Shown: positions 37,831 through 41,369, numbered from the stretch's first letter. The stretch is DNA of 64,000 bases from a virus (IMGVR_UViG_3300028242_000036:8222-72221); one strand, 5' to 3'. Numbers and translations are program-made. The notes: generated by a model not told the origin, from the letters alone.

Positions 37831-39372
37831 TTATACAACTGTACGAAGTGCCTCTTCAACAGCCTTATATCTTTCAGAATTAAGTTCCTTAACTAATGCC
37901 TTATAAGGGTCAAGCTCACCATTCAGCACAAGCTTCATAATGTTTGCAGAGAAACCACTAACAAGTGCTACACCCATATCATTTTGCTTTACAGGAATTG
38001 TACCTGTTCTTGAAGCAAGATTCCAAAAGATAAGTCTCGGAAGTTTATAACCATACTGAGCATACTTATTTGCAATAACATCAAAGAGTGTTGCACTAAC
38101 ACGACCACGACCATTAGTTGTTGCACAACTGTCAAATTCCATATCTGAAAGAATAAGAACATTCTGAGGAATTTCATCCTGTGTCATATGGTTATTGATT
38201 GCTGTCTTTAAAATAAGGTCAAACACAGCTTCAATATTTGTATTTGCCACCTCATTGTGCTTTAATGCAATTTCAAGCTTATCGTGTAAAGAACTTGCAT
38301 TTGTAAAATCAACCAACTGTGGTCTATTACTAAATGTAATATACTTATCCTTAAACTCTCCACTACATCTCTCACCACAATAAATAGCAAGAGCATTTGC
38401 AACCTCTAAAGCAGTTGTAGAAGAATTACTATCAACTGGTGTCATCATAGAACCTGAACCATCGGCAACAACGATTGTGTCTTTAATATTGCCAATATCT
38501 TTAAGTGATTTCCACATCTGTTCAAGTGCTTCGTCATAAGAGCCTACTCTACTGCCCCAATAACCTCTGCTATACTTATGAACTACATCGTGTGGGAAAA
38601 GTACACTTGCATTAATTTTGGTTTCACCCTTTTTGAGACTTTCGAGATATGCTCTTCTTCTCTCTTCATCATTACGCATAAAGGCATTTGAATACTTGAT
38701 ATTTGCCTTTGAGGGAACAGTAGAATAATCAATGTTTTCCCATTCCTTTGCAGACATCTTACATTCAACAACATCAAGATACTTTCTAAGAGCAGAAAGG
38801 GTCTTACGATACCTTCTTGCATCCCAATCTAAACTGTTTCTAATGAGTGTAGCTTTTCTCTTAGTGTCTTTTGAACTTGCATTTTCACTCGGCATCCACT
38901 TTGCAAGAAGTGAAATAGGCTTGTCTTCACGCATATTCATCTTGTCAAGAGCTAACTGAGTTTTAATGCTTACTAATGCTTCATTAACAACTTCTACATT
39001 GCCACATTCAATAAGCGTAATAAGATTATCCCATCTTGAATATTCAGGAATAAGCTTGATTACTGCAATGGCAATATCAGTATGCTGTTCGGCAAGATAA
39101 TTCATAATTACTCTGAATGTTCTTCTTTCGCCAAGACCTTCTCTTACATCTGAAGCATAGAAAAGCCACTTAACTGCAAGCATTGGATTTTCATAATAAG
39201 CATCAATAAACTTATTGATAATTTCCTGCTCACTTGCTTTTCTTAAACTTGCAACTGCAAAGTTTAAATCAAGAAGGTTCTTACCTGTTGTAGCATAACC
39301 TACTGCACCATTTTCTGTAATGGAAATTCGATTATCCATTTCGTTCTTCATTGCTGACATAAAATTACTCAT
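37831..39372 (-). CDS. TROVE/Ro60-like + vWA domain protein (DUF2828 type)
   Basis: TENGA, DVREGLGER, SLLAKWMP, YRKTL, IDYSTVP, LFPHDVV, vWA MIDAS VADGSGSM, TNIEAVF, LSDMEFD, IFWNL, LVSGFS; start MSNF after GAGG. Confidence 0.85.
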   Translation of the reverse strand: MSNFMSAMKNEMDNRISITENGAVGYATTGKNLLDLNFAVASLRKASEQEIINKFIDAYYENPMLAVKWLFYASDVREGLGERRTFRVIMNYLAEQHTDIAIAVIKLIPEYSRWDNLITLIECGNVEVVNEALVSIKTQLALDKMNMREDKPISLLAKWMPSENASSKDTKRKATLIRNSLDWDARRYRKTLSALRKYLDVVECKMSAKEWENIDYSTVPSKANIKYSNAFMRNDEERRRAYLESLKKGETKINASVLFPHDVVHKYSRGYWGSRVGSYDEALEQMWKSLKDIGNIKDTIVVADGSGSMMTPVDSNSSTTALEVANALAIYCGERCSGEFKDKYITFSNRPQLVDFTNASSLHDKLEIALKHNEVANTNIEAVFDLILKTAINNHMTQDEIPQNVLILSDMEFDSCATTNGRGRVSATLFDVIANKYAQYGYKLPRLIFWNLASRTGTIPVKQNDMGVALVSGFSANIMKLVLNGELDPYKALVKELNSERYKAVEEALRTVV

Positions 39373-39429
39373 TTTTAATAACCTCACTTTGAATTTTAAA
39401 TTTTAATTTTAATATATATTTAAAATTCC

Positions 39430-39491
39430 AAGGCTCAATTTTGCATTACAGATTAGCAGTCTGTCCCAAAAGATTTTGCTGTACGAGCCTT
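39430..39491 (-). ncRNA. ACAGCAA-stem RNA copy 1; cargo is a Ser(GCU) anticodon stem-loop
   Basis: AAGGCTC-GTACAGCAAA...ACAGA-CTGCTAA-TCTGT...GAGCCTT. Confidence 0.75.
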
Positions 39492-39512
39492 AGAAATTAT
39501 TTTAAAAAATAC

Positions 39513-39581
39513 AAGTCGCAATTTTTGTATAAGTTTAAATTTCAAGTTTAATCTCATAGTATGATTTGCTGTATGCGACTT
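39513..39581 (-). ncRNA. ACAGCAA-stem RNA copy 2; cargo is a Ser(UGA) anticodon stem-loop
   Basis: AAGTCGCA-TACAGCAAA...TATGAG-A-TTAAA-CTTGAAA-TTTAA-A-CTTATA...TGCGACTT. Confidence 0.75.
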
Positions 39582-39605
39582 ATGTATATTAAAGAAAGGA
39601 GAGAC

Positions 39606-39667
39606 AAGACACATTGAAAAGAAAGCCACCATCGTCTATTAGTAAATTTATTTGCTGTATGTGTCTT
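39606..39667 (-). ncRNA. ACAGCAA-stem RNA copy 3; short cargo
   Basis: AAGACACA-TACAGCAAA...TGTGTCTT. Confidence 0.7.
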
Positions 39668-39692
39668 AAAAGGAGAATCAAAACGAAACCCT

Positions 39693-39766
39693 TGGAGCAA
39701 CATAAGGTACTTGAAACCTTATTTTCTGATTGGAAATCAAATGTGTTACCGTTACACCAATGTTGC
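39693..39766 (-). tRNA. tRNA-Gly(TCC), encoded CCA
   Basis: GCAACAT acceptor, TTTGA-TTTCCAA-TCAGA anticodon arm, AAGGT-TTCAAGT-ACCTT T arm. Confidence 0.88.
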
Positions 39767-39776
39767 ATATAATAAC

Positions 39777-39906
39777 AAGACTCTATCAATAAACAATAGT
39801 CGCTGTCTTACCCCTTGACTACTACCTCATTCGGCAGGTAGGAATCGAACCTACGAATGGCGACTTGGCTTCTGTTATTTGAAAAAAGAATTGCTGTTAG
39901 AGTCTT
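39777..39906 (-). ncRNA. ACAGCAA-stem RNA copy 4; cargo is a circularly permuted tRNA (YrlA-like)
   Basis: AAGACTCTA-ACAGCAA...GCCAA-GTCGC, T arm GTAGG-TTCGATT-CCTAC, closed acceptor CTGCC-GAATGA-GGTAG, D arm GTC-AAGGGGTAA-GAC, GCGAC...TAGAGTCTT. Confidence 0.8.
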
Positions 39907-39913
39907 ATTTATT

Positions 39914-39989
39914 TGGATGCAGGAGATGGGATTGAACCACCGACCTTCAGGTTATGAGCCTGACGAGCTACCACTGCTACCATCCTGCA
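39914..39989 (-). tRNA. tRNA-Met(CAT), initiator-like, encoded CCA
   Basis: TGCAGGA acceptor, AGCAGTGGTAGCTCG D arm, TCAGG-CTCATAA-CCTGA. Confidence 0.88.
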
Positions 39990-40149
39990 ATATATAATTA
40001 AAAAATTTTATAACATTAGGGTGTTATATACCCAACACTTCTCTTACAAGCTCTATCGGCAATTCCTGTCCGTAAGCAAGTGCAAGAATAATTAAACTTC
40101 TCTTTAACTTAGACATTTACATTCCTCCTTATTTTATTTTATTGATTAA

Positions 40150-40225
40150 TGGTGCAGATGGTGGGAGTTGAACCCGACTTAAGCACGATTAAAAGTCGTG
40201 TGCCTGACCGTTAGGCTACATCTGC
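40150..40225 (-). tRNA. tRNA-Lys(TTT), encoded CCA
   Basis: GCAGATG acceptor, CACGA-CTTTTAA-TCGTG, bulged T stem. Confidence 0.85.
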
Positions 40226-40228
40226 ATA

Positions 40229-40304
40229 TGGCGGTGACAGAAGGACTTGAACCTTCGACACAGTGGTTAACAGCCACTCGCTCTACCTACTGAGCTATGC
40301 CACC
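40229..40304 (-). tRNA. tRNA-Asn(GTT), encoded CCA
   Basis: GGTGGCA acceptor, AGTGG-CTGTTAA-CCACT, GAAGG-TTCAAGT-CCTTC. Confidence 0.92.
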
Positions 40305-40510: not shown

Positions 40511-40582
40511 ATGTTTGGTGGTTATTAAGGTCAACCACCATAACCTTTTGAAAGAGGTTTATTATGACAAATCATCAACAAG

Positions 40583-40656
40583 TGGTGGAAAATGTCAGAA
40601 TTGAACTGCTCCCCACCCTCCCAAGGGGCGTGTGCTACCGTTACACCACATTCTCC
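40583..40656 (-). tRNA. tRNA-Pro(TGG), weak T stem, encoded CCA
   Basis: GGAGAAT acceptor, CGCCC-CTTGGGA-GGGTG, TTCAATT loop. Confidence 0.75.
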
Positions 40657-40662
40657 ATATTC

Positions 40663-40725
40663 AAGACACATTTCAGGTTTTATAGTTTAAAAGACTATTC
40701 CTAAATAATTTGCTGTATGTGTCTT
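40663..40725 (-). ncRNA. ACAGCAA-stem RNA copy 5; cargo is a Lys(UUU) anticodon stem-loop
   Basis: AAGACACA-TACAGCAAA...TTAGG-A-ATAGT-CTTTTAA-ACTAT-AAAA-CCTGA...TGTGTCTT. Confidence 0.78.
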
Positions 40726-40738
40726 TATTGATTAGGTT

Positions 40739-40825
40739 TTAATAGGGCAGTAAATCTGCACCGAAAATTAAACAAAAGAAATTCATAATTGATGTGAATA
40801 CAATATTGATAATATCAAGTGCCAT
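40739..40825 (-). CDS. 28-aa hydrophobic peptide
   Basis: MALDIINIVFTSIMNFFCLIFGADLLPY with GAAGGGAG RBS 7 nt upstream. Confidence 0.6.
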   Translation of the reverse strand: MALDIINIVFTSIMNFFCLIFGADLLPY

Positions 40826-40858
40826 AGTGTTACTCCCTTCTTTTAAATTTCTATATTC

Positions 40859-40998
40859 AAGATACATTTTTATTGATTTATCGTTGCTCTACCGACTGAG
40901 CTATCCTGCCATTGGGGGCAGGAGCAGGACTCGAACCTACGACCTACGGCTCTATGTTGCTTATCATTAAAAATTTACTTATTTGCTGTATGTATCTT
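40859..40998 (-). ncRNA. ACAGCAA-stem RNA copy 6; cargo is a circularly permuted tRNA with CCA in the acceptor loop
   Basis: AAGATACA-TACAGCAAA...T arm GTAGG-TTCGAGT-CCTGC, TCCTGCC-CCCAAT-GGCAGGA, D arm GCTC-AGTCGGTA-GAGC...TGTATCTT. Confidence 0.82.
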
Positions 40999-41000
40999 TT

Positions 41001-41087
41001 TGGTAGCGATAGTGGGACTTGAACCCACACGGTATTTCTACCCTCAGATTTTAAGTCTGATGTGTCTGCCTATTCCACCATACCGCC
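41001..41087 (-). tRNA. tRNA-Leu(TAA), long variable arm, encoded CCA
   Basis: GGCGGTA acceptor, TCAGA-CTTAAAA-TCTGA, GTGGG-TTCAAGT-CCCAC. Confidence 0.92.
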
Positions 41088-41094
41088 ATATTTA

Positions 41095-41116
41095 CAGGGT
41101 GTAATCAAACACACCC
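41095..41116. terminator. Hairpin in tRNA cluster
   Basis: AGGGTGT-AATCAAAC-ACACCCT. Confidence 0.4.
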
Positions 41117-41129
41117 TATTTTATTTTGC

Positions 41130-41285
41130 AAGGCTCTAATTCTAAACTCTATTCAACACGGCTTTAAAAACTATCAACGATACAGGTATCGTCAGATTTG
41201 GAAACTCACCGTAAAAGTTTTGTTCAACCCAATTCTTTTTAAATCTTTATTTGATAATTTCACTATCGTTTGCTGTGTGAGCCTT
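41130..41285 (-). ncRNA. ACAGCAA-stem RNA copy 7; long (~125 nt) cargo
   Basis: AAGGCTC-ACACAGCAAA...GAGCCTT; internal ACGATA-CCTG-TATCGT hairpin. Confidence 0.68.
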
Positions 41286-41294
41286 TAATTTTTC

Positions 41295-41369
41295 AAGACA
41301 CATTGCATTATAACTTTTTTATTCCTCTAATAAATGTCTATAATTTCTAATGTTTGCTGTATGTGCCTT
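41295..41369 (-). ncRNA. ACAGCAA-stem RNA copy 8; extended hairpin cargo
   Basis: AAGGCACA-TACAGCAAA...TTTAT-TAGAGGA-ATAAA...TGTGTCTT (one G.U pair). Confidence 0.72.

Follow-up and report, generated by a model that had tools for sequence, protein, structure and literature searches.

Eight small elements, which share one stem-and-motif frame (the "handle") and lie on the minus strand of a viral DNA stretch, probably form, together with the protein of the adjacent DUF2828 gene, a previously undescribed type of Y-RNA particle that plays a part in the contest over tRNAs. The stretch (IMGVR_UViG_3300028242_000036:8222-72221; 64,000 nucleotides (nt), hereafter the window) comprises bases 8222-72221 of a 72,221-nt linear virus record that is ~46% complete. 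The elements, E1 to E8, were found between positions 41369 and 39429, all of them less than 2 kb upstream of the DUF2828 gene and on its strand. Each consists of a 7-bp stem arm beginning with AAG, two free bases, an unpaired ACAGCAA, a variable cargo, the complementary arm, and a 3′ G.

An initial annotation, made from the sequence alone, had listed eight such elements with their stem strands (e.g. AAGGCTC/GAGCCTT), and all were present. The pattern AAGNNNCNNACAGCAA had eight matches across the entire 72,221-nt record, always within window positions 39476-41369, and a reversed control pattern was matched nowhere in that record. A chance origin of the handle was considered and rejected: ACAGCAA alone is mildly enriched in the window (18 vs. 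10.5), yet the full frame is confined to 2 kb. Seven copies were folded singly and yielded minimum-free-energy (MFE) z-scores of -1.45 to -4.04; the terminal stem was present in all seven MFE structures and was likewise closed in the MFE fold of E2. The stem of E8, the last copy, ends 57 nt ahead of the DUF2828 ATG at 39372, in agreement with the ca. 58 nt given initially.

Pairing of the handle and its linkage to DUF2828 genes

For the covariation test, the first downstream N4-CTTG was taken irrespective of pairing, and the four free stem positions were scored. These positions were fully paired in 128 of 173 distinct elements, compared to 34 (maximum 46) with shuffled partners; the claim of compensatory stem changes was upheld by this pairing-blind test. 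It is on this test that covariation rests, because pair counts on an alignment whose rows were selected for pairing are circular. At the free positions, G-U outnumbered A-C by 8:1, as expected for sense-strand RNA.

The co-occurrence with DUF2828 genes that had been proposed as a check held in both directions. When loci were anchored on the gene, a handle was found on the gene strand in 78 of 80 viral loci, compared to six of 80 for the opposite strand and 10–20 of 80 for permuted motifs; arrays in gene-anchored loci reach nine copies. In gene-anchored bacterial and archaeal contigs, an element was located on the gene strand in 44 of 80, with the opposite strand and the permuted motifs at background. 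In the reverse direction, records longer than 68 kb were picked using a handle 16-mer; 42 of the 47 encode a DUF2828 protein, including 20 of the 22 near-complete ones, against an overall base rate of 709 in 50,697 phage records (a comparison that is not size-matched). Handle elements also stand beside the gene in Listeria, Staphylococcus, Campylobacter, Klebsiella, Enterococcus, and Fusobacterium phages and in cluster L mycobacteriophages.

A covariance-model search of phage genomes, also proposed in the initial annotation, detected elements in six of eight DUF2828 phages, five of them unrelated to the training rows and one (Alf5) close to phage Bas63. No element was detected by the model in the five tRNA-rich, DUF2828-free phages T5, T4, Bxz1, G, and CcrColossus, three of which encode true TROVE proteins; the notion that the handle is a generic trait of phage tRNA arrays was ruled out on this basis. 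Two loose handle matches on the tRNA strand of T5 proved to be antisense inside coding genes and were rejected. The two DUF2828 phages missed by the model, KVP40 and Synechococcus B23, have divergent handles that were seen by pattern.

The position of the elements relative to the gene varies. In Ochrobactrum and Erwinia phages the RNA cluster is found ~50 kb and ~200 kb, respectively, away from the DUF2828 gene, distances that speak for RNAs acting in trans. In 92 of 162 loci, the end of an element falls no more than 100 nt from the start codon of DUF2828, and in Vibrio phage KVP40 (L132:11965-12005, plus strand) the 3′ arm of the handle shares bases with the start codon while the loop holds the ribosome site. 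The KVP40 arrangement suggests translational autoregulation, and other start-proximal copies may likewise add autoregulation. Three Methanobrevibacter assemblies (L285, L289, and L290, as binned) contain the gene with two to four handle elements each; the system may therefore extend to archaea or archaeal viruses.

Predicted fold of the adjacent protein and cargo of the handle elements

The gene at 37831-39372 (minus strand) encodes a 513-residue protein with profile matches to DUF2828, DUF7788, and PHROG 850 ("RNA-binding protein"). The family is large (~4,000 clusters at E < 1e-30), and its 709 cultured-phage records often have the gene beside a tRNA array. An AlphaFold2 model (mean predicted local distance difference test score, pLDDT, of 82.5) features a helical ring of the Ro60 type (HEAT repeats) closed by a vWA domain. 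The ten best PDB entries for this model were all Ro60 (Z of 13.2–17.0, root-mean-square deviation of 4.4–5.9 Å, 391–420 residues aligned, identity of 13–18%); the next-best match had a Z of 10.2 and covered the vWA part only. The metal ion-dependent adhesion site reads DGSGS at residue 304 (DxSxS), and both serines and a neighboring aspartate are invariant in the family alignment. The ring carries many conserved Arg and Lys residues. Neither this protein nor any other part of the genome was matched by Pfam TROVE (PF05731), a profile that reaches even the Ro60 of phage phiLo only at an E of 0.06, and sequence-level homology of the protein to solved Ro60 structures was not significant. The adjacent protein is thus predicted to be a divergent Ro60-fold ring; the original description of it as a TROVE/Ro60-like vWA protein stands with respect to the modeled Ro60 and vWA folds and fails with respect to a Pfam TROVE assignment by sequence.

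The cargos differ among the eight copies. According to their folds, lone anticodon stem-loops are borne by E4 (40662-40725; Lys-UUU, z of -4.04), E7 (39512-39581; Ser-UGA), and E8 (39429-39491; Ser-GCU), the only elements with a canonical 7-nt loop on a 5-bp stem. E1 (41294-41369; z of -2.95) has a 7-nt anticodon-like loop (GAG) on a 5-bp hairpin stem, with A in place of U33. E2 (41129-41285), recognized by pattern and fold, is long, with a multi-hairpin cargo, and E6 (39605-39667) contains a variable, weak hairpin. E3 (40858-40998) and E5 (39776-39906) fold into permuted tRNA elbows resembling that of YrlA. The cargo of E3 is composed of a T arm, a 7-bp acceptor hairpin whose loop comprises the discriminator and CCA, and a D arm; that of E5 is composed of a T arm, a 5-bp acceptor hairpin, a D arm, and a 6-bp anticodon stem running into the linker. 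The claim of isolated anticodon arms and other hairpins is therefore retained, while the "permuted whole tRNAs" must be amended: E3 and E5 are not whole, as in both the anticodon stem passes into the linker and an anticodon loop is missing. It had also been remarked that an existing Rfam family covering the copies would remove their novelty; no Rfam family reached its cut-off on any of the eight, the scores of YrlA (RF02553) being 42.7 bits for E3 and 27.7 bits for E5, both below the 69-bit gathering cut-off.

Two syntenic relatives, L296 and L297 (92% and 87% protein identity), were compared to the window. In both, the handles show little or no change, and both stem arms of E2 are kept. The E8 slot, which is Ser-GCU here, holds Asn-GUU in L296 and Asp-GUC in L297; the E1 slot of L297 holds a canonical Pro-GGG loop; the cargo of E7 is replaced in the relatives; and E4 of L297 has compensatory stem changes with the Lys loop kept. 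E3 is missing as a whole unit from L297, and E5 from both relatives. Handles that are kept while the E8 anticodon is switched, the preservation of the E4 loop on a compensated stem, and the loss of whole units indicate that the loop is under selection and exchangeable.

Across loci, three classes of slot cargo are demonstrated at the level of sequence, and all exceed their frequencies in shuffles. Among 359 cargo clusters there were 79 lone anticodon arms (20 in shuffles), 36 YrlA-like elbows (0.1), and 23 tRNA cores bearing the handle instead of an acceptor stem (0.04). Lys-UUU accounted for 12 of 52 anticodon arms vs. 26 of the 501 tRNA genes that these loci contain (odds ratio of 5.5, p = 6e-5); only gene-anchored loci were used in this calculation, which removes the bias of the 16-mer search. 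The arm anticodons ranking next were Pro-UGG, Ser-UGA, Ser-GCU, and Asn-GUU.

The 2.4-kb stretch from the promoter consensus sites to the open reading frame (ORF) at 39372-37831 contains seven tRNA genes and a single short ORF of note. The tRNA genes (Leu-UAA, Pro-UGG, Gln-UUG, Asn-GUU, Lys-UUU, Met-CAU, and Gly-UCC; 39693-41087, minus strand) are interleaved with the handle elements, as had been asserted; this is true of all seven, the Leu tRNA (41001-41087) included. Three tandem sites that match the sigma-70/A promoter consensus perfectly (42042, 41882, and 41781, within 41753-42042 of the minus strand), and that are putative promoters on the strength of this match, point into the array. 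They have near-identical spacers and A-rich upstream tracts, and their number differs among relatives. No terminator-like site was found on the minus strand between them and the DUF2828 gene. The short ORF (40023-40115, minus strand) is situated within the tRNA array, has a strong ribosome site, encodes a hydrophobic peptide of 30 residues, and is conserved in L296, L297, and probably a further relative, L299.

Other observations were made in the vicinity. A tRNA-shaped element with a terminal CCA (41541-41623, minus strand) was called by neither ARAGORN nor Rfam; it has T and D arms and an extended anticodon arm with a loop of 3–5 nt, and L296 and L297 retain it in altered form. Two handle-free intergenic regions of the minus strand are possibly further small RNAs: 40315-40430, which varies among relatives, and 41400-41520, which has a conserved, GAAA-looped hairpin at its end. 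An RNA ligase with a PHA02142 OB-fold is encoded at 31008-32477, 5 kb downstream of the DUF2828 gene and on the same strand. Relatives encode Thg1 near the DUF2828 gene (L296) or SHMT inside the array (L299). The neighboring genes MrpR, AAA_24, and YorH, together with close homologues in Clostridia/Lachnospiraceae assemblies, suggest that the record derives from a large SPbeta-like phage of gut Firmicutes.

Proposed role of the particle and alternative explanations

The explanation toward which the evidence leans, by a modest degree, is that the handle RNAs partner the DUF2828 Ro60-fold ring and display tRNA mimics as baits. The eight elements would be genes for small trans-acting RNAs, partners of the DUF2828/DUF7788 ring, whose transcription, shared with the tRNAs, would start at the upstream promoters and be followed by excision. 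By analogy with Ro60, which clamps the stem of Y RNAs, the protein probably clamps the 7-bp stem, the single-stranded ACAGCAA, and the 3′ G, shielding both ends. The loop would serve as a free slot in which a tRNA part is put on display: anticodon arms, YrlA-type elbows, and, in phages other than this one, tRNA cores with the handle in place of the acceptor stem. More tentatively, these non-chargeable mimics may bind or saturate the host's tRNA-targeting defense nucleases and tRNA-handling enzymes, whether as baits or as competitive inhibitors. Real tRNAs of both host and phage would thereby outlast the infection, and anticodons would be exchanged as host defenses shift. Lys-UUU, the favored anticodon, is the target of PrrC. 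It is also the target of AriB of the PARIS system (PMC12409363).

Several points weigh against this explanation. About half of the cargos (164 of the 359 clusters) are short, with no recognized tRNA part. AriB appears to need contacts beyond the anticodon arm (PMC12409363), which could make an arm on its own an inefficient bait for this nuclease. The loci counted above are not phylogenetically independent, many being relatives. Finally, gp130 of phage Bas63, the sole homologue with a tested function, counters Ppl, even when moved alone into T7 without the Bas63 handle RNAs (bioRxiv 10.1101/2024.10.10.617714), and Ppl is not a tRNase; it degrades single-stranded DNA as a 3′ exonuclease and responds to DNA overhangs and nucleoside triphosphate depletion.

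The last point bears on a second explanation, somewhat unlikely overall, in which the same ribonucleoprotein performs a different job: the ring would cap single-stranded 3′ ends, and the RNAs, in the manner of classical Y RNAs, would either gate the ring off or serve as tethers, their tRNA-like cargo recruiting host PNPase, RNase P, CCA-adding, or ligase enzymes for RNA decay or repair. Capping of 3′ ends would explain the anti-Ppl activity, because Ppl senses 3′-OH overhangs; and since gp130 alone suffices in T7 against a DNA 3′ exonuclease, the ring may cap such ends unaided, with the RNAs gating or tethering. Precedents for both functions are available, in that Y RNAs serve Ro60 as gates and tethers (PMC4201824) and that the Ro60 of phage phiLo, with its Yrl RNAs, dampens PNPase (PMC12135203). 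The CCA in the acceptor loop of E3 could be exposed by RNase P cleavage, as in the YrlA of M. smegmatis (PMC4201824), and RNA-processing genes are located nearby: the RNA ligase 5 kb downstream, Thg1 in L296, and RtcB plus an RNA ligase in Listeria phage LMTA-148. What gating or tethering leaves unexplained is the bare anticodon loop on compensatory stems, the switches of anticodon identity, and the bias toward Lys-UUU. The two functions are, moreover, compatible with a bait role and do not exclude it.

It was also considered that the handle, bound by the protein, is a cis-acting operator or a processing or stability signal in a polycistronic tRNA transcript, with the cargo being debris of tRNA genes. 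The proximity of an element to the start codon (≤100 nt ahead of it in 92 of 162 loci), the overlap with the start codon in KVP40, and the many unstructured cargos would suit such a site. It is nevertheless improbable, given that some clusters are 50–200 kb from the gene, that anticodon loops and T and D arms occur far above chance and with compensatory change, and that up to nine copies per locus exceed the need of an operator; leader copies would, in addition, still imply protein binding. The elements could instead work as DNA, forming a cassette or recombination signal by which pieces of tRNA are shuffled, and have no function as RNA. This would account for the clean gain or loss of the whole units E3 and E5 among relatives, yet it is very improbable in light of the strict strand bias, the preference for G-U over A-C, arms that differ among copies but pair within a copy, and a linked protein whose fold is of an RNA-binding kind and not that of a recombinase.

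If the clamped-bait explanation applies, the handle RNAs would supply the missing RNA partners of DUF2828, a family of unknown function with one member that is a proven counter-defense protein. They would also represent a phage strategy, i.e. non-coding anticodon baits stabilized by a protein clamp, that was not found in the literature searched. Model phages (the Felix O1 group, Listeria and Campylobacter phages, and cluster L mycobacteriophages) become directly testable for such RNAs in the intervals separating their tRNA genes.

Comparison with known systems

In the literature searched on DUF2828, ACAGCAA, and phage Ro60/Y RNA, no description of an ACAGCAA-handle RNA family was found; the supplement of Chen 2014 could list some YrlA-like copies, and large unannotated phage-RNA catalogues lay outside the search. 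The closest bacterial counterpart is Rsr with its YrlA and YrlB RNAs (RF02553; PMC4201824), known also from phage phiLo (PMC12135203), where a Ro60 ring with a vWA domain is likewise encoded beside small RNAs on the same strand. YrlA RNAs are described as encoded ≤4 kb from the Ro gene on its strand, and all eight elements fall within this distance (<2 kb upstream). The terminal stem is shared; so, in E3 and E5, is the order of T arm, acceptor hairpin, and D arm, and YrlA resembles E3 in having CCA in the acceptor loop. The other six elements have no YrlA-type tRNA-like domain. The partner here is DUF2828/DUF7788 rather than Pfam TROVE; there are eight RNA copies rather than two or three; and neither anticodon arms nor tRNA cores are mentioned as Y RNA cargo in the literature compared. 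The handle (stem, ACAGCAA, and G) also differs from the Ro-binding motif GNCGAA(N)G (PMC4201824), which was found near the 5′ end of none of the elements, its sole match inside an element being in the acceptor loop of E5; the initial view that the handle is not the classical motif was thus correct. Elsewhere among phages, a true Ro60 binds adjacent Y-like RNAs, with phiLo Ro60 and its Yrl RNAs binding host PNPase as well as dampening it (PMC12135203), and a jumbo-phage review notes ROT/TROVE proteins with a tRNA-like partner.

Within the DUF2828 family, gp130 of phage Bas63 (JohannRWettstein) is 36% identical to the present protein over 489 columns and is likewise encoded beside a tRNA array. 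Its authors saw the likeness to Ro60 and speculated that Y RNAs might be present among the annotated tRNAs (PhageMaP, bioRxiv 10.1101/2024.10.10.617714). Handle RNAs were not identified in that paper; they sit between the annotated tRNAs. Four unannotated elements, one of them YrlA-like, were located there, downstream of g130 (L302:22073-22909, plus strand).

The tRNA-Lys of phage T5, which acts against PARIS (PMC12409363), shares with the handle RNAs the setting in a tRNA array and the favored anticodon Lys-UUU, as well as Asn-GUU. The T5 molecules are chargeable, cleavage-resistant tRNAs, whereas those described here are non-chargeable fragments on a protein handle.

In its handle, the family closely resembles the Class I RNAs of Dictyostelium (RF01414; PMC7919456), and either homology or convergence is conceivable from the sequences. 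Class I RNAs are ca. 60 nt long and multi-copy, with a short covarying terminal stem, a variable loop, and an unpaired motif ending in ACAGCAA that adjoins the 5′ arm. When this genome was scored with RF01414, the top four matches fell on handle elements, at 12–14 bits (best 13.8) compared to a cut-off of 41.5. Of the 11-nt Class I motif (T3, C6, C9, A10, and A11 near-invariant), the last seven letters are present in all eight copies and T3 in one. The stem differs in register by one pair, being 6 bp followed by UG in Class I RNAs and 7 bp followed by G in the handle; Class I RNAs are also eukaryotic, have the RRM protein Rnp1A as their known partner, and have not been described with tRNA cargo. 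The supplements of PMC7919456 make no mention of DUF2828. A Capsaspora candidate rejected there as a Class I RNA has both a stem and the complete motif, a hint that the range among eukaryotes may be broader. It is a speculative and rather unlikely extension that DUF2828 and ACAGCAA RNAs constitute a second ancient class of Ro-fold ribonucleoprotein, spread over hundreds of phages and many host phyla, with programmable display of anticodon baits and with Class I RNAs as its eukaryotic members. The comparison nonetheless offers a testable origin and partner for the Class I RNAs, which have been thought unique to those amoebae.

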